A program made the position numbers and the translations under genes. A stretch of 41,805 nt of DNA from a virus. The notes under the pieces are model-generated. The model saw only the letters and a list, made by a program, of their open reading frames with translations. It was not told where the DNA came from and ran no database searches. The first letter of the stretch is position 1. Every line of letters begins with the position of its first letter. The DNA lies in IMG/VR virus record IMGVR_UViG_3300045950_000203, positions 1 to 41,805 of that record. One strand, given 5' to 3'. Below are positions 1-41,805 of the stretch, piece after piece.

Positions 1-127
1 TCAAAGTAAAATCTGTATTTTTGGCGTTATTCGCTGTGCCTGGTGCAGCAGAATCCACCGAAGTAGGAGCTGGATAGGCAGCGGTATAATCTCCGCTTCC
101 CTTAATACTTACGCCTAGTCGGCAGTT
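1..127. repeat. Terminal direct duplication, identical to 41679..41805. The contig closes into a 41678-bp circle or circular permutation.
   Basis: Exact identity read at both window ends (tcaaagtaaaatctgta...gcctagtcggcagtt). 127 nt is also a typical assembler k-mer overlap. Confidence 0.95.
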
Positions 128-21582: not shown

Positions 21583-21652
21583 AAAAGAAGAGATTGTCGA
21601 TCGTAGCTCATTTCTAAAACGCAACTTATTGAAAAATAAAGAGAACCGAAAA

Positions 21653-22474
21653 ATGAATACCATAGAGCATGTTTTATCTGTGGATGATAAGCTATTTCGT
21701 CGAGAAACAGGAGCATGGGGGAAACGAATTTATGTCGATGAAGCGGGAAGAGAGTATGCAAACATCACAGGAATTTTGAAGGTGATTCCTAACCCGGCAT
21801 TATCGAATTGGAAAGCTAAAAATGAGAAAAATGCTTGCTGGAAAGCAGCGTGGAAAGTTTCTCAAAATTCTCATGTTGAAACTGAAGAGCAATTTTTTCA
21901 GCATTGCGAATCTGAATTTAAGAAAGAAAATATAGAACAAGAAGGGCAAAATGCAGCGACAATCGGTTTTATGATTCATGAAACAATCGAGCAAGAAATT
22001 CAGATCATGATGAGTCGGCAACTTGAGCTTCTAATTCAAACGCCTTCGTTGTTATCGGAGATTGATATAGCTTTAGATCACTTCCGAGAATTTGTAAAAA
22101 CTTTCAAACTTGATTTTATTTGTGCAGAGAGAGTTGTTTATTCAGAGAGGCAGCCTCGATTTGCCGGAACCATTGATGCAATAGCAAACATAAATGGAAT
22201 TGCTACACTCATAGACTGGAAAACGAGTAAGGCAATTTATCCTGAGTATTGGATTCAACTTGCGGCTTACCATAAAGCCTTTTTTAGGACCACGATGGTT
22301 GAACTGCCTCAAGTAGCGGTTGTCCTTATTCCTAAAGTTTCCTCTAAAGTCCCAGAAATTCAAATCTTAAAGGCTCACAGTTTAGAGAGATATTATCGAA
22401 CTTTTGAAGCGGCCTTTGAACTTTATCTATGGCAGAATTCCGACTTCTCTAGTTTAGCTCCTCATAGCACTTGA
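21653..22474 (+). CDS. PD-(D/E)xK (RecB/Cas4-like) exonuclease.
   Basis: GTIDAIANINGIATLIDWKTSK (D...DxK) and QLAAY motifs are present. The ORF track starts at TTG 21629, but ATG 21653 is more plausible. Confidence 0.65.
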   Translation: MNTIEHVLSVDDKLFRRETGAWGKRIYVDEAGREYANITGILKVIPNPALSNWKAKNEKNACWKAAWKVSQNSHVETEEQFFQHCESEFKKENIEQEGQNAATIGFMIHETIEQEIQIMMSRQLELLIQTPSLLSEIDIALDHFREFVKTFKLDFICAERVVYSERQPRFAGTIDAIANINGIATLIDWKTSKAIYPEYWIQLAAYHKAFFRTTMVELPQVAVVLIPKVSSKVPEIQILKAHSLERYYRTFEAAFELYLWQNSDFSSLAPHST

Positions 22475-28440: not shown

Positions 28441-28476
28441 ATTTTCTTCCTTTGTTTACTTTTGTTGTTTGTTTAT

Positions 28477-28540
28477 TCCGGACTTGGAACCGGACCTCGT
28501 TTCACGAGGGGCCTTACAGGGGTTGCCCCCTGTCCTCGGT
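28477..28540 (-). other. Structured 3' element X (minus strand) after gene 28541..28855.
   Basis: On the minus strand it reads GGACAG, then CAGGGG-GCAA-CCCCTG (28517-32, GNRA loop), CCTCG-tgaaa-CGAGG, and CCGGTTCCAAGTCCGG (28479-93). Confidence 0.5.
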
Positions 28541-28855
28541 TTAGAACGGGCCATTCTGGCAATGCTCGATGCCGTAGCCGAAGCGCCGGCATCGGCAAGG
28601 CTCACCTGCCAGATCGCAGGGACACGGTGGAGGAGTAGATGGCCGATCTTCGCAAGCGACACAAAGGACATCAGCTTCCAACCGAATACCATCGACCTCC
28701 AGAACGGCATAGTCCTTGCGGGTGTCCTCGCAAACTACACACCCAGAAAACCCGCTGCCTCCACATACCGGACATGAAATTTCACGGAGGCGACCTGTCG
28801 GCCCTTCGATAATTACTGTCTGCCAACCCATGCACTCACGACATTTTTGACTCAT
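28541..28855 (-). CDS. Cys-rich zinc-ribbon protein (four CxxC motifs plus CPC and CRC).
   Basis: 104 aa with a strong AAGGAGGG SD. Motifs are CREC, CPVCGGSG (DnaJ-type CxxCxGxG), CVVC and CVAC. Codon usage is GC-rich, unlike the rest of the phage. Confidence 0.65.
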   Translation of the reverse strand: MSQKCRECMGWQTVIIEGPTGRLREISCPVCGGSGFSGCVVCEDTRKDYAVLEVDGIRLEADVLCVACEDRPSTPPPCPCDLAGEPCRCRRFGYGIEHCQNGPF

Positions 28856-29018
28856 TTTCCCTCCTTTCTCTAGGACACCGAGTACTGACCTCCGTTACCG
28901 ACGTAAATACTTTCGATGTCCATGTACACACATCACAAACAGCCACGAACAGTGAGTAAACATTCCCCTGCTCACTACGCTCTGGCCGCCAAAAGATCTT
29001 TAGCTCATGCTGCATCAT
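28836..29018 (-). CDS. Hypothetical small protein (60 aa).
   Basis: An AAGGAG SD lies 7 nt before ATGATG at 29018. The longer track ORF (to 29117) lacks an SD. Confidence 0.45.
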   Translation of the reverse strand: MMQHELKIFWRPERSEQGNVYSLFVAVCDVCTWTSKVFTSVTEVSTRCPRERRENESKMS

Positions 29019-33421: not shown

Positions 33422-33460
33422 TAGATGAAAGGAAATCAAAAAGAAAATAGGAGATACAAA

Positions 33461-34531
33461 ATGAATCAAGAAGTGACAATTTCTATATCGCATCTAATGC
33501 CTCAGACTTTAGCTGAAAAGCTAAAGATGGCAGATGTATTCGTGAAATCGGGACTTATGCCTTCTGGTTTCCGAACAGCAAGTCAGGTACTTGTGGCCCT
33601 TCAGATGGGTCACGAGTTAGGTATTCCGCCAATGAGGGCAATTCAGAACATCGCAATAGTCAATGGTCGGCCGACACTCTCTGCCGATCTTCTTTTGGCT
33701 ATCGCGATGAGAACGGGGGAAGTTGAAAATTTCGATGATAATGACTGTAATACCGAAAAAGCGGTGATTAAATTAAAACGGCGGGGATATAGTGAAAAAA
33801 TTTCAGTTTTTACTTGGGAAGATGCGAGGAAAGCGGGACTAACAGGAAAAGAGAACTGGCAGCGATTTCCACAGAGAATGCTCAGGGCTAGGGCGCTTGC
33901 TTTTGCAGTGAGAGACCGTTTTCCTGACGTTCTCGCCGGCCTTTACACAGCTGATGAAATTTCTGGAGGTTTAGTAGAAGATGTGATTGATGTAGAAATC
34001 CTGGAAACAAAAGAAAAATTCCCCTCTCCACAAGAACAAGAAATCAAACCTGTCGATTCCAATTCTGAATCAATGACACCGGAACAAAAAAAAGATATAA
34101 TTTTGATTTCATCTCTCCTTAAATCGATGGGAATCACCTCGAAAGAGGCTTGCCTGGAAAAAATTAGATCAATTATCCCAAGAGAAAATGGCTCTCCGAT
34201 TCAAAGCAGAAAAGATCTTACCTCAGAAGAACGAAAATCTGTTATCGATTTTCTTAAAAAAGAAGAAGCTGAACTTTTCAAAATCCTGATAACAGCTCTC
34301 ATTCAGGATTTTCAAACAGCCAAAATAAAATCAGAATTTATGATGGATAAAATCATTGACTATATCGGTCATAATGTCTATGATTTAAAAGAACTCTCTC
34401 TGCAAGAAATCAAAGAAATTCGTGAAAAGCTTCAAACAGAATATTCAACTTTTTTCCCTTTAACTCCTAAAGAATGGAAAAAAATCCATCCACCAAAAAG
34501 AAAGGAAACAAGTGAAAATCCTCATAACTAG
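33461..34531 (+). CDS. RecT/Red-beta-superfamily-like single-strand annealing protein with a long C-terminal tail.
   Basis: LQMGHELGIPPMRAIQNIAIVNGRP..SADLLLAIAMRTG and ENWQRFPQRMLRARALAFAVRDRFPD parallel the RecT core blocks. TAGGAGA precedes ATG 33461. The track start at 33425 lies inside the promoter. Confidence 0.55.
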   Translation: MNQEVTISISHLMPQTLAEKLKMADVFVKSGLMPSGFRTASQVLVALQMGHELGIPPMRAIQNIAIVNGRPTLSADLLLAIAMRTGEVENFDDNDCNTEKAVIKLKRRGYSEKISVFTWEDARKAGLTGKENWQRFPQRMLRARALAFAVRDRFPDVLAGLYTADEISGGLVEDVIDVEILETKEKFPSPQEQEIKPVDSNSESMTPEQKKDIILISSLLKSMGITSKEACLEKIRSIIPRENGSPIQSRKDLTSEERKSVIDFLKKEEAELFKILITALIQDFQTAKIKSEFMMDKIIDYIGHNVYDLKELSLQEIKEIREKLQTEYSTFFPLTPKEWKKIHPPKRKETSENPHN

Positions 34532-34643
34532 CTGGACTTCGGTGGATCTAGTAAAACCATGTACGCTCTGTCACAAAATAATCAAAAAACATTTTGAAGC
34601 ATAAAAAGCTTGGAATCAAAGAGCTAAATAAGGATAAAATTAT

Positions 34644-34988
34644 ATGACTGAAACTCAGCTTATAGCCGTAATTCTTGAGTATCTGAAACTTCACCATATT
34701 CCTGCATGGCGAAATAATACCGGTGCTTTTGTCGGTGAACACAAAGGAAAGCATCGATTTCATCGCTATGGATTCAAAGGAAGCAGCGATATTTTGGGAA
34801 TAATTCCTCCGAATGGTCGATTATTAGCGATTGAAGTAAAAATCGGGAAAAACAAGCTTACTCTCGATCAATTACAATTTTGGCAGATGATCCGCGATAA
34901 TGGAGGACTGGCATTTGTAGCATATAAACTAGAAGACGTTGAATTGGCTCTAAAATCGAAAATCGATCTTTCGGATGAGGAAAAATGA
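34644..34988 (+). CDS. VRR-NUC domain nuclease.
   Basis: GSSDILGIIPPNGRLLAIEVKIGKNKLTLDQLQFWQMIRDNGGLAFV matches the D...ExK plus Q pattern of VRR-NUC. Confidence 0.7.
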   Translation: MTETQLIAVILEYLKLHHIPAWRNNTGAFVGEHKGKHRFHRYGFKGSSDILGIIPPNGRLLAIEVKIGKNKLTLDQLQFWQMIRDNGGLAFVAYKLEDVELALKSKIDLSDEEK

Positions 34989-35015
34989 TCGTCGAATGCA
35001 AAAATAACCCATAAT

Positions 35016-35888
35016 TTGAAGAAAAACATGAGCAAACAAGCGATTACTAATGCAACTCGAACGGATCTATTTTTGATGGACCCAGCGCAGTTAACTATCA
35101 TCGGACTAGACACTCCCGATAAGGAGAATCATCCTCTTTATGATTCGCGGATTCATTTGCCTCTTGATGAGGCAATGGTAAAAAATATAATGACATTCGG
35201 AGTACTAGAACCTGTTTTAGTCAGAAAAAACGGAGAAAATATCGAGGTTCTTGACGGTAAACAGCGGGTCCGACATGCCAGAGAGGCAAACAAACGATTA
35301 GAGGCTCAAGGTAGTAAACCTCTGAGAATTTCGGTACTTGCCCCCAAGAGAGAATCAGATAAGAATCTCGCAGGAATAATGGTTTCTGCTAATGAGATTC
35401 GTAGGAGCGATGAATGGGTTCAAAGAGCTGAAAAAGCTCTAAAACTCCTAAATTTCGGTTACACAAAACCTGAGATTGCTAATCTTTTTAATGTATCAAT
35501 GGCGACAGTTACTCAATGGCTTATGTTTTTTGATTTGGATGAAACCATTAAAGCAAAAATTGTCAATGGCGATTTGGCTCCTTCTACGGCTACATTATTA
35601 GCCAAGTTTTCCCATGAACAGCAAAAAGAAGAGTTGTTAAAACTTGAGAAAGCCAAAGACAATAATGGCAAAAGCAAAATCAGAAAAAATTCTGTTATCG
35701 AAACTATTTCTAAATCAAAATCTAAACCTCTCCCAGGAAAAAAACTCCTTAAAGGTATTCTGAAACATCAAGAATATTCAGATATTTTGCCTAATGGTTT
35801 CTTGGCTGCTCTTGAGTGGATTCTCGGCGAAATTCAAACAGAAGATATTCCCGGTCTCTCTGAAATTTTAAAGGAGTTGGAAAAATGA
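35016..35888 (+). CDS. ParB N-terminal-domain protein with an HTH.
   Basis: LEPVLVRKNGENIEVLDGKQRVRHA is a ParB/Srx box, and KPEIANLFNVSMATVTQWL is an HTH. An alternative start is ATG 35028. Confidence 0.65.
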   Translation: MKKNMSKQAITNATRTDLFLMDPAQLTIIGLDTPDKENHPLYDSRIHLPLDEAMVKNIMTFGVLEPVLVRKNGENIEVLDGKQRVRHAREANKRLEAQGSKPLRISVLAPKRESDKNLAGIMVSANEIRRSDEWVQRAEKALKLLNFGYTKPEIANLFNVSMATVTQWLMFFDLDETIKAKIVNGDLAPSTATLLAKFSHEQQKEELLKLEKAKDNNGKSKIRKNSVIETISKSKSKPLPGKKLLKGILKHQEYSDILPNGFLAALEWILGEIQTEDIPGLSEILKELEK

Positions 35889-36274
35889 GTCTTATAGCAA
35901 TCATCGGAAAACTCATAGGCCCGATTGCAGAAGTAATAGATCGCGTGATTCCAGACAAAAACGTCTCGAATCACTTGACGTCTCAGATTCAAAAAGAGCT
36001 TATGGAAAAAGTTTACAAGAATCTCGAACAGGAGCTTGATGCTCAGGTTCAGGTTTTACTGGCAGAGGCCAAGGGTGATCTCTGGATTCAGAAAGCATGG
36101 CGGCCCATTGCCATGCTCGCGTTTACGGCAATTGTCTTTTTTTATACGCTTCTACCTGCTGTCGCTGGCACAAATCCACCACCATTACCAGATCAAATCT
36201 GGTATTTTTTGGATATTAGCATGGGTGGTTACATCGTGGGACGGTCGGCGGAGAAAATTCTGAAAAAGCCATGA
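35885..36274 (+). CDS. Putative holin (3-TM, GTA-holin-like).
   Basis: 129 aa. LAEAKGDLWIQKAWRPIAMLAFTAIVFFYTLLPAV plus a further hydrophobic segment resembles the Holin-of-3TMs family. Confidence 0.5.
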   Translation: MSLIAIIGKLIGPIAEVIDRVIPDKNVSNHLTSQIQKELMEKVYKNLEQELDAQVQVLLAEAKGDLWIQKAWRPIAMLAFTAIVFFYTLLPAVAGTNPPPLPDQIWYFLDISMGGYIVGRSAEKILKKP

Positions 36275-37140
36275 AATCAAAGAAAGGAATTATTATGAAA
36301 ACTTGGCATGATAATTCATCCTTAAAAGATCATTTTATTACTCAAATGCAATCTCATTATGATGCAGATGAATTGGTTAAAGGGTATTATTGGGAAAATG
36401 GGAAAGGTTGTGCAATCGGATGTGTTACGCATAGCGGAAAAAATCCGCATTCAGAATTTGAAAAACTAACAGGGATTCCTCGGATAATTGTAAGGATTGT
36501 AGATTTAATTTTTGAGCGACTTTCAAACGAAGAAGCGAAGAAGTGGCCTTTGCAATTTTTGAAGGCGGTGCCAGTTGGTGTTAATCCGGTATTCTGGTGG
36601 CCGAAGTTTTCACTTTGGCTTTTAATAGATCCTAAAGAAGGTATTATCCGGTTTGCCAAAACTAACCGTACAGAGGTAATAAATCAGGTAGCCAATCTTT
36701 ATAAACGACAGATTTTAGGAGAGCGAATTTCTCAAGAGGATTGGCGAAATTCCGCCGCCGCCGCCGCCTACGCCGCCGCCTACGCCGCCGCCTACGCCGC
36801 CGCCGACGCCGCCGCCTACGCCGCCGCCTACGCCGCCGCCTACGCCGCCGCCTACGCCTCCTACGCCGACGACGCCTCCTACGCCGACGACGCCTACGCC
36901 GCCGCCTACGCCGCCGCCTACGCCGCCGATGCCGCCGCCGCCTACGCCGCCGCCTACGCCGCCGCCTACGCCGCCGACGCCGCCGACGCCGCCGCCTACG
37001 CCGCCGCCGCCTACGCCGCCGCCTACGCCGCCGACGCCGACGCTAAAACTGCGACATATCAAAAAGCATATCAAAAAATGAGAGATAAACTATTAGAGAT
37101 TGTAGGAAAAACTAAGGAATGCAATAATGAAATCAGATAA
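36271..37140 (+). CDS. Hypothetical protein: globular Cys/Trp-containing N-domain plus a low-complexity region of about 95 aa, (AAAY)n/(AAD)n.
   Basis: 289-aa ORF with ATGA overlap with the holin gene. The repeat is in frame and flanked by normal sequence. Confidence 0.7.
   Translation: MKSKKGIIMKTWHDNSSLKDHFITQMQSHYDADELVKGYYWENGKGCAIGCVTHSGKNPHSEFEKLTGIPRIIVRIVDLIFERLSNEEAKKWPLQFLKAVPVGVNPVFWWPKFSLWLLIDPKEGIIRFAKTNRTEVINQVANLYKRQILGERISQEDWRNSAAAAAYAAAYAAAYAAADAAAYAAAYAAAYAAAYASYADDASYADDAYAAAYAAAYAADAAAAYAAAYAAAYAADAADAAAYAAAAYAAAYAADADAKTATYQKAYQKMRDKLLEIVGKTKECNNEIR
36752..37043 (+). repeat. Tandem 12-nt repeat array, GCCGCCGCCTAC and variants.
   Basis: Read directly. About 24 units with GAC/GAT/TCC variants. 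It is very GC-rich, and all frames on both strands are open. Confidence 0.9.
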
Positions 37141-37228
37141 AAAAACATGGGATAATTTAAGCCCAGAATTAAAGAAAATTCTCACTCCAGATCGCGATAA
37201 ACCTATAAGTCAACTACCCGTCCCCTAA
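37127..37228 (+). CDS. 33-codon ORF, possibly the truncated N-terminus of a duplicated copy of the upstream gene.
   Basis: MKSDKKTWDNLSPELKKILTPDRDKPISQLPVP* can be compared with MKSKKGIIMKTWHDNSSLKDHFI of 36271..37140. Its stop sits in the loop of hairpin 37217-38. Confidence 0.3.
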   Translation: MKSDKKTWDNLSPELKKILTPDRDKPISQLPVP

Positions 37229-37590
37229 AGGGGACGGGCTTGTCCGGAAGCAATCCTGAACAGGCCCCACGTTGACCAGCTTCAGCCAGGGCCTTCGGGC
37301 TACCGGGCTACGTTATCTGAGTCAGGACACCCTGGGGTGCTTCGCCAGCTCCAGGCACTTTGTGTCGTCCGGCATTAAACAGGTGTAAGGGGTTTAGGCC
37401 AGTGTGCCGGATGTAAAAAGCTCGGATAACATTGGCGAGGAGAGACTCCGATCTCATTCGGAGCGTTACCAGCCCCTTACGGGGACCGCTTAGAGGGGAG
37501 GGCCTTCGGGCTCTCCCCTTGTGAGCGGATGCTAAAAAGGCGCTCCTCCCCTTCCCTCTCATAGAAAGGGTGTCCGCGCCTGGGAGGATT
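37212..37590 (+). ncRNA. Candidate structured non-coding RNA of unknown class.
   Basis: A GC-rich island with no ORF of 60 aa or more on the + strand. It has at least six strong hairpins, including two C(UUCG)G hairpins, and G-T wobbles compatible only with the + strand. See findings. Confidence 0.5.
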
Positions 37591-37615
37591 TATGACTTTT
37601 AAAAGGAGCTGAAAT

Positions 37616-37705
37616 ATGGGATATATATTTTATCATTGTACAAAACATAATTGGGAATCAGTCGATCCTTGTCTCTTTTGCCAAAAAGAAAAACAATCGG
37701 TATGA
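37616..37705 (+). CDS. 29-aa Cys/His mini-protein.
   Basis: An AAAGGAG SD lies 7 nt before the ATG. The product is MGYIFYHCTKHNWESVDPCLFCQKEKQSV*. Confidence 0.4.
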   Translation: MGYIFYHCTKHNWESVDPCLFCQKEKQSV

Positions 37706-37788
37706 TCGAAACAGCAGGAGGTTTTACAATTATTGCTCGCTCTTTAGGAGATGTGATTCAAGCTTTAGAATCATTGAAAGGAGAATGA
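37702..37788 (+). CDS. 28-aa hypothetical peptide.
   Basis: ATGA start/stop overlap with the previous ORF. The product is MIETAGGFTIIARSLGDVIQALESLKGE*. Confidence 0.35.
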   Translation: MIETAGGFTIIARSLGDVIQALESLKGE

Positions 37789-37797
37789 AATAAATAA

Positions 37798-37986
37798 ATG
37801 GAACCAGATGAAATATGGGAATTTTTCAGCTTTATACGAGAAGTAGCTTTGTATGAAATATATCAAACTTTGATTTTTCATCAAGAACAGAGCATGACTA
37901 TTGTTGAATGTGCTTTTCTTGATCTCTATGGAGAACGGCTGAATTACTTCAGAGAATGTGCGGAATTTGAAAATCGAGCAAGATAG
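37798..37986 (+). CDS. Hypothetical protein.
   Basis: 62-aa ORF with a GGAGAA SD upstream. Confidence 0.45.
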   Translation: MEPDEIWEFFSFIREVALYEIYQTLIFHQEQSMTIVECAFLDLYGERLNYFRECAEFENRAR

Positions 37987-38031
37987 TTGTAAAATTTTGG
38001 CAGAATTTAAAAAAATAAAATAGTTTGTAGC

Positions 38032-38667
38032 TTACCACAGATCCCAATTAAAATTCTGCTCTCTGTCTAAAGTAGAAATAATCGGAATTTCATTTCGAGA
38101 AGGACGGCTATGAATATTCCCCCCCATTTTGAATTGTTCTGCATACCAAAGAGGCAAAGCTAGAGCAATCACCATGTCGTCATGTTTACCTCGATCCGCT
38201 TCATAAGAATCCTCACCTTGTGTTCCAATTTTGACTCTGAAACTGATAAGTTGATTTCTTAGAGTTCTAGCTAAATCCATTTGTCCTGCAATTTTTAGCC
38301 GGCCTGATTCTAGTACAATTGCTAAAGCGCCAACTAAATCACGCTTTGGTAGGCGATAGTCAACTAAATTCACTTCGACAACATTGTAACCTCCCGTGAT
38401 TTGAACAGAAATTACAGAGAGTTTTTCTCGAAGATAATCAATAATCGGAGTTCCGATTCCTGTTGCATCTACCACAAGAGTATGATTTTCTTTGAATGGT
38501 TCTTTGTTTAGACATTCAAACAGAAAACTTACAATCTGTGGATAGGGAGTATGTAAAGGAAAACTGCGGATATTCCTCAATAGATATAGATCTGATGTCT
38601 GCTCGATTAAAGTCAATGTAGATGGATCTTTTGTTTTTCCTAGATCTAATCCGAATAGGAATCTCAA
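38032..38667 (-). CDS. terL: Large terminase, nuclease (RNase H-like) domain as a separate ORF.
   Basis: LFGLDLGKTKDPSTLTLIE supplies the first catalytic Asp and HDDMVIALALPLWY the last Asp. The start is TTG 38667, overlapping the TGA of the ATPase ORF. Confidence 0.75.
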   Translation of the reverse strand: MRFLFGLDLGKTKDPSTLTLIEQTSDLYLLRNIRSFPLHTPYPQIVSFLFECLNKEPFKENHTLVVDATGIGTPIIDYLREKLSVISVQITGGYNVVEVNLVDYRLPKRDLVGALAIVLESGRLKIAGQMDLARTLRNQLISFRVKIGTQGEDSYEADRGKHDDMVIALALPLWYAEQFKMGGNIHSRPSRNEIPIISTLDREQNFNWDLW

Positions 38668-39419
38668 TTGAAAAACTCCATCGGTTCTATAGAATTGTCA
38701 AAGGCTCTTTCAATCGCAGTCAATGAAAAAAACTGATCTTCACTTTCAATAAACTCGCATAAAAAGTCCTGACGAAAAGCCCAATCTGACATGCGATCGC
38801 GTAAATTTTCAAGATAATTCTGATCGATTCGAGGATTTTGATAAGCATTTATTAAAATTTTTTTCCAGGTTTCTTTTGAATTCCATTCTTGCCAAAAAAT
38901 TCCTCTTTTTCCTGCCGGTGTAGAAAGTAAAATCAGTTTTCCTTTTGAAACTGCTAACATTGGAAGAACTGAATAATAAAGGTTATCTTCGATTCGAGCT
39001 GCTTCATCAATGATCAGAAGCGAAACTGATGAATATCCTCGAATCGTTTCCTCTTTACCAGGTAAACAAATGATCCTTGATCCATTTTCACATTCTAATT
39101 TAAGTGCTGATTCTTCCGTAACTGGAAGTTGAACTTCCTTCAAAATCGCATAAAACTGACGAACTTTCCTAAAAAGTTCCTGACTCTGACGCAAACTAGG
39201 AGATAAAATTAGAGTAAGCGCGTGAGAGCGAGATATTGTGTTATGAAATCCAGCTAAGGCAGCTATTGTACTTTTTCCTGATTGTCGAGCGCAATTTAAG
39301 ATAATCTTTGGAGCCTGAGAAAGTAGAACTTCTTCTTGCCACGGATCGAGCTTTAATCCGGCTAACTCTGCTAATAGTGTAGGATCAAGAGCAGTTCCGA
39401 TTTTAAGATTAGGATTCAT
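38664..39419 (-). CDS. terL: Large terminase, ATPase domain as a separate ORF.
   Basis: Walker A is CARQSGKST, Walker B is LLIIDEAA, and the coupling motif is LLSTP. The product is 251 aa. Confidence 0.8.
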   Translation of the reverse strand: MNPNLKIGTALDPTLLAELAGLKLDPWQEEVLLSQAPKIILNCARQSGKSTIAALAGFHNTISRSHALTLILSPSLRQSQELFRKVRQFYAILKEVQLPVTEESALKLECENGSRIICLPGKEETIRGYSSVSLLIIDEAARIEDNLYYSVLPMLAVSKGKLILLSTPAGKRGIFWQEWNSKETWKKILINAYQNPRIDQNYLENLRDRMSDWAFRQDFLCEFIESEDQFFSLTAIERAFDNSIEPMEFFN

Positions 39420-40713
39420 AGTCTTCTGGTAGTTTCATCTGACTCTCATAAATTCCTTGCTTTTCAGTTCTAGGAATTTCTTCAATATCCTCTGGATTAT
39501 ATCCATATTTTCTTAGATAATACTGAGTCGAAAAGCGACGCTGTGTTGCTCCTTTTTCTCGACTCCATCCTTCAATGACCTTTGTATCTTTAAGAAGAGT
39601 TTCATATTGATTTTCTCGATATAAACAATAAATCGGAGGATAAGGATCATCAAAATTTAGTTCATTTATTTTAGCGATTAACTCATTTCCTGCATTCTCT
39701 GCCATCGCTTTAATAGCTAATTCTGCTAGGTTCATTCCCTCCTGGTGAGTTTTTGCGGCTCCATAGGAGCTTGATTCTGCCCCCCGCATTTCAACGGTAA
39801 GCGTTTGACCTAGCAGAGCCTTTGAAATTTCGTTGTTCCAAAATATTTCATATCGCTCGTAAATATCGGAACTTTTACCGCTACTTTCATGAAAGTCGAT
39901 TGAAGAATCATTCGGCACAGTTCCGACTCCATCTTGACAGAGCTTGTCAAGTGCATCCAAAATAGCGGAAATCTCTCGTTCTCCAAGTCCCCTCGGATGT
40001 TTAGCGATCGGCCAGGGCATTCCATATTTTTCAACAAATTTTATCCACCATTTTGCTCCGTTCTTTTTTGCAGATACCGGCCAGAAAACCAGAGATAAGA
40101 GTGGAAATCCTTGAGGACGTTCATAAGTAGACATATGTTGAATGACAAGAAAGTTTTCATCTGGTATCGAAATACCAGGAAATGGATTTTCTTTTGTTTT
40201 GAATAAAATCCGATTATCAGGAGCCCAATTAAACCACCACGGAGGTTTAGCTTCAATAGCTTTTAAATTTTTTGCCTTATTGGAACCTGGTAACCACCAT
40301 CCTCCTTCAGAAATCCAATTAATTTCTAAGGGTTGATAACCCCACAATTTTGCATCAACAATAAAAGAAACAAAATGAAAATTATTGATATTTCTAAAAC
40401 TGGTTTCAATTAGTTTTAATGTCTTCTTTTTTGTTAATTGCTGTGGTTCAATTCGATATGAATAGGATTGAATTCCTCGTTTAAGTTGACTGACACAAGC
40501 AAAAACATGAGGGTCCGTTAGAAGTTCACGATAGACCTTCATGTCCTTATTAAGTTTTTTTAAGATGTCGTCAGGATTAGGTAGATAACCAAAAGCAGTT
40601 AAATAAAAATCTTCAGAAATTTCGCGGGAAGCTATTTGACGGGAAAGAGAACGAGAGGGGGCCTCAAAATGATAACTTTCATGCTCATTTAACCAGAGTG
40701 TTAATTGACTCAT
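39409..40713 (-). CDS. Portal protein (Mu gp29/DUF935-like).
   Basis: 434 aa. LLTDPHVFACVSQLKRGI, WWIKFVEKYGMPWPIAK and NNEISKALLGQTLT match the DUF935 pattern. Confidence 0.75.
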   Translation of the reverse strand: MSQLTLWLNEHESYHFEAPSRSLSRQIASREISEDFYLTAFGYLPNPDDILKKLNKDMKVYRELLTDPHVFACVSQLKRGIQSYSYRIEPQQLTKKKTLKLIETSFRNINNFHFVSFIVDAKLWGYQPLEINWISEGGWWLPGSNKAKNLKAIEAKPPWWFNWAPDNRILFKTKENPFPGISIPDENFLVIQHMSTYERPQGFPLLSLVFWPVSAKKNGAKWWIKFVEKYGMPWPIAKHPRGLGEREISAILDALDKLCQDGVGTVPNDSSIDFHESSGKSSDIYERYEIFWNNEISKALLGQTLTVEMRGAESSSYGAAKTHQEGMNLAELAIKAMAENAGNELIAKINELNFDDPYPPIYCLYRENQYETLLKDTKVIEGWSREKGATQRRFSTQYYLRKYGYNPEDIEEIPRTEKQGIYESQMKLPEDYES

Positions 40714-41565: not shown

Positions 41566-41805
41566 TTAGACGAATACAACAAACATCATTACATTCGCTG
41601 TTGCCGCCATTGTATCGTTGGCGTGACCTCCTTCTCGTCCAATTCGCACTTTGATTAGGTTTCCTACGGTTAAACTGCTCAAAGTAAAATCTGTATTTTT
41701 GGCGTTATTCGCTGTGCCTGGTGCAGCAGAATCCACCGAAGTAGGAGCTGGATAGGCAGCGGTATAATCTCCGCTTCCCTTAATACTTACGCCTAGTCGG
41801 CAGTT
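41566..41805 (-). CDS. C-terminal end of the same fibre gene (...NTDFTLSSLTVGNLIKVRIGREGGHANDTMAATANVMMFVVFV*). 41679..41805 duplicates 1..127.
   Basis: The frame is continuous with the 1..4129 ORF across the circular junction. The TAA stop is at 41568..41566. Confidence 0.85.
   Translation of the reverse strand, partial: NCRLGVSIKGSGDYTAAYPAPTSVDSAAPGTANNAKNTDFTLSSLTVGNLIKVRIGREGGHANDTMAATANVMMFVVFV
41679..41805. repeat. Second copy of the 127-bp terminal duplication (= 1..127).
   Basis: Same as above. Confidence 0.95.

Follow-up and report, generated by a model that had tools for sequence, protein, structure and literature searches.

The phage genome of IMG/VR virus record IMGVR_UViG_3300045950_000203 (positions 1 to 41,805; "the window" below means this whole stretch of 41,805 nucleotides) carries at positions 37209-37591 a G+C-rich, hairpin-dense island that, judged by its sequence, represents an already described RNA family within an already described type of mobile element and not a novel RNA. 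The family is HEARO, the non-coding RNA upstream of IscB genes that is now recognized as the omega-RNA guiding IscB, a transposon-borne ancestor of Cas9 (PMC9755519; bioRxiv 10.1101/2023.03.14.532601). The RNA architecture of the island is intact, the element retains a transposon end module, and the complete genome encodes neither IscB nor TnpA. We consider it likely that the island is a non-autonomous, IscB-type element of the IS200/IS605 family that has lost iscB, a mini-element resembling the palindrome-associated transposable elements (PATEs), and that it is served in trans. Binding of IscB and guided cleavage are functions predicted for its RNA. The parts of the element and the motif that adjoins it are the following:

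37209-37591, plus strand: whole element, a PATE-like mini-transposon of the IS200/IS605 family (IscB type) without IscB and TnpA, 383 nucleotides (nt), with boundaries inferred from homologues
37209-37449, plus strand: scaffold core of the HEARO / IscB omega-RNA (RF02033), taking in the right-end boundary of the transposon and the first hairpin (37217-38)
37446-37484, plus strand: 3' extension of the omega-RNA, delimited by conservation and covariation and made up of hairpin H1 (37446-63), the linker GTTACCAG and hairpin H2 (CCCC-UUAC-GGGG, 37473-84)
37486-37528, plus strand: long terminal hairpin H3 with a UUCG loop, an inverted repeat in the window sequence
37538-37581, plus strand: left-end subterminal structure with outer stem AGGCGC/GCGCCT, loop TCCTC, an inner hairpin and loop TGTCC
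37582-37591, plus strand: probable spacer between end hairpin and boundary, GGGAGGATTT, placed by analogy with the spacers of 7-10 nt in 12 homologues
37592-37596, plus strand: putative target-adjacent motif ATGAC (GTCAT on the TnpA strand), assigned by comparison with homologues and part of the flank, not of the element

Identity of the island and its relatives

A cmscan search of Rfam 15 matched 37209-37449 of the plus strand to HEARO (RF02033) with 138.7 bits against a gathering score of 83 (E 5.9e-29), and the match spans the entire model, positions 1-211 of 211. A sequence-only reading of the window had proposed a novel structured RNA at this place and had itself named a confident Rfam match as the outcome that would remove the novelty, so that this claim is refuted. 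Other Rfam families in the island, at E values up to 5, were noise only, and a search for tRNA and tmRNA found neither there, in agreement with the same reading. HEARO copies linked to IscB score between 109 and 148.5 bits; the score of the island falls inside this range, which argues that the RNA has not decayed.

Relatives of the island are found in viruses, genomes and metagenomes. A two-anchor pattern of the HEARO core retrieved seven copies in six loci on viral contigs, each followed after 25-60 nt by an open reading frame (ORF) of 426-493 amino acids (aa), and all four of these downstream ORFs that were scanned carry the Pfam domains RRXRR and HNH and are hence IscB. A 21-mer of the HEARO 3' end led to 19 loci in metagenome-assembled genomes (MAGs) of Clostridia, other Firmicutes, Desulfallas, Thermotoga and other lineages, 15 of which were confirmed by cmscan, and a pattern taken from the core yielded 23 metagenome loci, which were checked by blastn and tblastn only. 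HEARO copies without an ORF are common in the family, and two additional IscB-less ones were encountered in viral sequences (L075, L083). That HEARO systems can reside on contigs of viruses or prophages had been reported before (PMC9755519). As a side observation, deletion derivatives of IscB have arisen independently: L042 and L060 (compared with L043) keep the omega-RNA together with the first 4-5 IscB codons, and L029 keeps the omega-RNA, the last 21 IscB codons and the end module.

Composition, folding and coding capacity

The G+C content is 0.57-0.58 over 37200-37599 (200-nt windows), compared with 0.32-0.45 in the flanks, and reaches 0.59 for the element against 0.40 for the window as a whole. 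The longest plus-strand ORF within the island has at most 38 codons, and the description of the island as a G+C-rich non-coding stretch of the plus strand therefore holds. Folding of 37190-37600 as plus strand gave -189.6 kcal/mol, compared with -153.5 +/- 5.4 kcal/mol for dinucleotide-shuffled controls (z = -6.65), a comparison that had been suggested as a check on the structure; the minus strand reached a z of -3.03 only. This difference is in line with the argument for a plus-strand RNA that had been built on G-U pairs. All hairpins listed in the sequence-only reading are present, and the strongest were recovered as inverted repeats, namely 37217-26/37229-38 with 100% and 37494-504/37509-19 with 91% complementarity. 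Neither an intrinsic terminator nor a convincing promoter was found within the element.

Coding on the opposite strand was considered as well, since an ATG ORF of 84 aa runs through 37308-37562 of the minus strand. We rejected it and give it practically no chance of being a gene. Among homologues the stop-free length on that strand ranges from 37 to 113 codons and the frame is not conserved, and the variation between homologues is compensatory in helices and not codon-like; a long minus-strand ORF can arise by chance because the DNA is G+C-rich.

The 14-mer AGGGCCTTCGGGCT, which forms a hairpin capped by UUCG, occurs at 37288-301 and again at 37499-512, as had been noticed before. One copy sits in a variable stem of HEARO and the other at the tip of the long hairpin H3, and the duplication is present in none of the relatives examined.

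The 3' extension of the omega-RNA

On the plus strand the right end of the transposon is the 5' start of the scaffold, which consists of the HEARO core and three 3' hairpins, and the left-end hairpin follows about 10 nt further on. The RF02033 model was built without the downstream structural elements of the omega-RNA (Meers et al., bioRxiv 10.1101/2023.03.14.532601). In IscB-bearing copies, H1, the linker and H2 follow the HEARO core and precede the start codon of IscB. Across 14 sequences, 98.3% of the cells in H1 and H2 are paired and both sides have changed in seven of the nine pairs, which is the kind of compensatory change among homologues for which a test had been suggested; none of 500 shuffles paired as well, and controls slid along the alignment were paired at 32-48%.

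The long hairpin H3 stands where full-length copies have a short CUCC-GAAA-GGAG hairpin that holds the Shine-Dalgarno sequence (SD) of IscB. A longer, unrelated hairpin occupies the same place in the IscB-less copies L025, L012, L030, L016 and L019.

The left end, the probable boundaries and the putative target-adjacent motif

Downstream of the RNA hairpins lies the segment of about 55 nt that we name the left end in TnpA terms, the strand on which TnpA acts being the minus strand of the window. The module recurs in 12 other copies, both IscB-bearing and IscB-less, and in four of the full-length elements examined it stands at or just after the IscB stop codon (L013, L022, L027 and the second L020 copy). 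Its architecture is the same in 13 of 13 copies, each folded independently, and the outer stems vary in a compensatory manner (GGCGCA/TGCGCC, AACGGTT/AACCGTT, GGTGCT/AGCACC, GTCGCA/TGCGAC). Folding of single sequences was used here in place of a MAFFT alignment of the module, which had put the stems out of register.

This conservation bears directly on the proposal that the island is a novel structured RNA whose 3' part acts as a translational switch, with alternative pairings that mask or free the SD-like GGGAGGA and thereby regulate the gene that follows. The copy of the window allows either pairing to be drawn, and one minimum free energy fold uses TCCTCCC:GGGAGGA. Only one of the two competing helices is, however, shared: the fold conserved in all 13 copies is that of the AGGCGC/GCGCCT stem and the hairpin inside it, whereas the partner of GGGAGGA, present here, is not conserved in homologues. 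The segment is the subterminal end hairpin of a transposon, common to copies with and without IscB, and what lies downstream of the homologues is unrelated genes or none. The next gene of the phage has its own SD, AAGGAG at 37603-08, outside the element, and the 6-codon mini-ORF that had been assigned a part in the switch takes its ATG from the A-T-G-A of the putative target-adjacent motif. Together with the confident match to an Rfam family, these points make a switch very improbable.

The boundaries follow from the comparison of copies. In 11 loci and two families with multiple copies, similarity begins at GTCA, and the window has GTCAAC at 37209. In the MAGs UBA6811 (three copies) and B1Sed10_159 (two copies), all IscB-less, the copies are alike exactly from GTCA to GTGA and have unrelated flanks, which identifies them as mobile units of 360-400 nt without a gene. 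GTGA stands 7-10 nt after the end hairpin in 11 of the 12 homologous copies, and ATGA (37592-95) stands 10 nt after it in the window. By analogy with these copies, the 5' boundary is placed at GTCA and the 3' boundary before (G/A)TGA, the latter probably to within about 3 nt.

On the TnpA strand the motif reads GTCAT in the window and NTCAC in the relatives. Read on the RNA strand, N-T-G-A is compatible with the first four positions of the OgeuIscB motif, NWRRNA (PMC12660989). GstIscB and TnpA both use the motif TTCAT (bioRxiv 10.1101/2023.03.14.532601).

A metagenome copy (L061, 61-117) shows a different arrangement, in which a left-end-like module, CCCACGGCTAAAGCCGTGGGCTTCCTGCGGTGTGTCCC, directly adjoins the omega-RNA start GTCATAGAC, as would be expected of a tandem insertion or of a circle junction between right end and left end.

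A complete phage genome without IscB or TnpA

The first and last 127 nt of the window (1-127 and 41679-41805) are identical, which closes the assembly into a circle of 41,678 bp. The absence of IscB and TnpA is consequently not an edge effect. Six IscB proteins used as tblastn queries revealed no remnant in the window (best E 0.085, away from the island), no ORF of at least 90 aa in the closed genome has a Pfam match to RRXRR/HNH or Y1_Tnp, and the 440 nt that follow the HEARO match, where an IscB ORF would be expected, contain no ORF above 45 aa.

By the Pfam content of its ORFs of at least 90 aa the phage is a Mu/P2-like myovirus, with portal, split terminase, sheath, tube, baseplate, primase-helicase, RecT, VRR-NUC, ParB and holin. 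A RecT-family protein, a VRR-NUC nuclease and a PD-(D/E)XK nuclease are encoded in 33425-34988 and 21629-22474, a toolkit that could mend a break made by IscB through copying of a sibling genome. Some features of the genome lie apart from the element. The large terminase (38032-39419, minus strand) is apparently split into two ORFs that overlap by 4 nt, an ATPase (38664-39419, Terminase_6N) and a weakly matched nuclease (38032-38667, Terminase_6C, TTG start); the two genes may be genuine, or their separation may result from a frameshift or from faulty assembly. A second G+C-rich island (28451-28900, up to 0.60 in the 0.40 genome) holds a match to the Twister-P5 ribozyme (RF02684) at 28478-28540 of the minus strand, with 40.1 bits against a gathering score of 37.6, directly 3' of a cysteine-rich ORF of 104 aa with CxxC motifs (28541-28855, minus strand).

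Insertion site, predicted guide and neighboring genes

The element lies next to ATGA, in the 3'-terminal part of a small phage ORF, and three features of the flanks are needed to describe the site:

37193-37208, plus strand: predicted guide of the omega-RNA, CGCGATAAACCTATAA, phage flank 5' of the scaffold and outside the element, assigned by the published guide rule
37127-37228, plus strand: small ORF with its 3' end probably altered by the insertion, now of 33 codons and ending in ...KPISQLPVP before the stop
37603-37705, plus strand: downstream phage gene, outside the element and intact, with SD AAGGAG at 37603-08, ATG at 37616 and 29 codons

IscB guides have a length of 16 nt. The predicted guide CGCGATAAACCTATAA is unique in the window at up to three mismatches. 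According to the published rule, the omega-RNA scaffold comes from the right end of the transposon and the guide is the 5'-adjacent flank outside the element, so that transcription of the omega-RNA must enter from outside; insertions are moreover biased toward the orientation of the upstream gene (bioRxiv 10.1101/2023.03.14.532601). The genes upstream of the island (35016-37228) all lie on the plus strand, as does the RNA, which fits the reported bias.

Deletion of 37209-37591 in silico gives ...AAA CCT ATA AAT GAC TTT TAA AAGGAG.... We infer from this that the element-free site would be AAACCTATAA joined directly to ATGACTTTTAAAAGGAG, that an empty-site or excision junction would read GATAAACCTATAA followed by ATGACTTTTAAAAGG, and that the small ORF without the element would have 30 codons and end in ...KPINDF, its stop abutting the SD of the next gene as in a typical tight phage junction. 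The insertion would accordingly have exchanged the last three codons of the small ORF for six. The earlier idea of an insertion stands in so far as a foreign element was inserted. Its second part, a duplicated gene copy as the recipient, finds no support: the N-terminal echo of the upstream gene comes down to a 15-nt match at 87% only, and at the protein level a fusion of the small ORF with the downstream ORF shows no significant similarity to the 289-aa upstream protein (BLASTP E 0.49).

The upstream gene itself (36271-37140, plus strand) contains about 22 copies of a GCC-rich 12-nt unit (repeat 36704-37088) that encode (AAAY)n, and the public Logan contig is broken inside this repeat. The N-terminal 165 aa have homologues of 40-50% identity in other phage-like contigs and no Pfam domain.

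A proposed mini-element served in trans

We propose the following course of events for a mini-element served in trans. Read-through from the upstream plus-strand phage genes would produce the predicted omega-RNA, whose first 16 nt, CGCGATAAACCTATAA, would stem from the flank. IscB from the host, or from another element in the host, would load this RNA in trans, and the loaded complex would cut the element-free allele only, in which CGCGATAAACCTATAA would be followed directly by ATGA. Recombination, for which the phage has RecT-family and nuclease genes of its own, would then copy the element back, so that it would either be kept after excision or spread by homing to co-infecting genomes that lack it. 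Transposition would need a host Y1 TnpA acting on both end hairpins. PATEs with omega-RNAs that act in trans have been described (bioRxiv 10.1101/2023.03.14.532601).

Several points weigh against this proposal. The motif is ATGA here and GTGA in 11 relatives, and the local alignment of left-end and right-end hairpins scores 20, a marginal value that was reached by 24 of 500 shuffles. The 3' boundary and the guide are drawn by analogy. Translation of the small ORF enters the first 20 nt of the scaffold and might disturb folding of the RNA. No IscB or TnpA partner emerged from the scan of the closed phage genome, and since the nearest omega-RNA of all collections reaches only about 81% identity over 181 nt, there is neither evidence of recent transposition nor a cognate nuclease to point to. 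The element is present as a single copy in the window, and the empty-site allele appeared in no related phage among phage records, IMG/VR and exact-protein searches.

The searches behind these last points covered phage, plasmid, genome and metagenome collections. Neither the genome nor the metagenome collections hold a near-identical copy (best 81%). The region 35000-39500 had no blastn match in 50,697 phage records, a window-specific 29-mer pattern had none in IMG/VR, and the terminase and portal proteins found only motif-level relatives or none there. Plasmids gave a single weak match of 126 nt to the HEARO core, in Cetobacterium. Exact-protein look-ups returned the source contig only (Logan SRR35774032, 41,450 bp), and the phage contexts in which the upstream 289-aa protein has homologues (40-50% identity) are unrelated and not syntenic, and they offer no empty site. 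Two further probes were set aside: a 24-mer of the UUCG hairpin matched five viral contigs over the hairpin only (24-27 nt), by chance or as a terminator-like sequence, and the 16-mer GATAACATTGGCGAGG gave mostly chance matches in IMG/VR, of which only those confirmed by cmscan were used.

Many of these observations would also suit an inert fossil, that is, an element that once entered the phage, or its prophage, and is now unused in a host that would have no compatible IscB or TnpA, its RNA being a passenger of read-through. A complete genome without IscB and TnpA, a nearest relative at only about 81%, the single copy and a motif one base off that of 11 relatives all fit such a history, as do the long H3 and the duplicated 14-mer, which are idiosyncratic to the copy of the window. 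The covariance score is, however, as high as in IscB-linked copies, and H1, H2 and the end hairpin are all still paired. A G+C content of 0.59 in a 0.40 genome would furthermore erode without constraint, on a time scale that is uncertain. We regard a fossil as possible and, on balance, rather doubtful.

A further explanation turns the element into a tool of the phage. With an IscB from the host, the guide would direct cuts in co-infecting or resident (prophage) relatives that lack the insertion, amounting to gene drive or competitor exclusion. The insertion is almost harmless to the phage, its orientation permits expression by read-through, and RecT-family, VRR-NUC and PD-(D/E)XK genes are on hand for recombination; the two other IscB-less HEAROs on viral contigs, L075 and L083, are in keeping with it, and a 2026 review has a category of "transposon non-restorative homing" into co-infecting phages (PMC13565253). 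These points go no further than compatibility, and the idea is pure inference. No related phages that could serve as targets appeared in any collection searched, and because the guide is fixed by the insertion site, only the empty allele of the element's own locus could be targeted. Exploitation by the phage thus seems unlikely to us; if true, it would represent an RNA-only homing system on a virus that drives its own allele and the linked genes.

Comparison with known systems

Among known systems, the HEARO / IscB omega-RNA itself provides the closest frame. The island shares with it the full-length match to RF02033, the IscB-linked 3' hairpins, the upstream-gene orientation and a scaffold that starts at the GTCA boundary. 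It differs in that no IscB ORF follows, that a 43-nt hairpin capped by UUCG replaces the short SD-bearing one, and that it resides in a phage genome without the nuclease.

PATEs are protein-less IS200/IS605 derivatives, some of them related to ISGst5, an IscB element from Geobacillus stearothermophilus (bioRxiv 10.1101/2023.03.14.532601). Like them, the element of the window keeps both ends and the omega-RNA, has no coding capacity, would need TnpA and nuclease in trans and adjoins what reads as a TCAY-type motif (TTCAT in ISGst5, GTCAT in the window). Unlike them, it belongs to another sequence family, with about 70-80% to Clostridia-type copies, and occurs once, on a virus, instead of forming a multi-copy chromosomal family; its mobility is a prediction.

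The IscB-less families of Clostridia MAGs, UBA6811 (L012, L025, L030) and B1Sed10_159 (L014, L016, L019, L023), display the same order of GTCA, HEARO core, H1, a GTYACNAG linker, H2, a long hairpin, end hairpin, spacer and motif within 360-400 nt. They are 70-73% identical to the element of the window, are multi-copy and have GTGA, not ATGA. The omega-RNA or reRNA of TnpB (IS200/IS605, IS607) likewise combines a transposon-end scaffold with a flank guide that cuts the empty donor joint. In TnpB elements, by contrast, the RNA lies at the 3' side, its guide comes after the scaffold (3') and the motif before the target (5'), and the fold is unrelated and has no Rfam HEARO match.

Significance

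Altogether, a known mobile guide-RNA element, and not a new class of RNA, accounts for the G+C-rich, hairpin-dense island of this AT-rich phage. Its interest for RNA discovery is accordingly low, and its value for the ecology of OMEGA systems and for host inference modest. The host of the phage probably has an active IS200/IS605 TnpA, and IscB; relatives from anaerobic Firmicutes/Clostridia-type MAGs and from bioreactor metagenomes provide a clue to its identity. The inferred empty site, guide and motif offer a directly testable target. As a well-preserved new member of its family, the element illustrates cleanly, within a closed viral genome, how an omega-RNA can be apart from its nuclease, and it supports the view that OMEGA components work in trans and travel on viruses.

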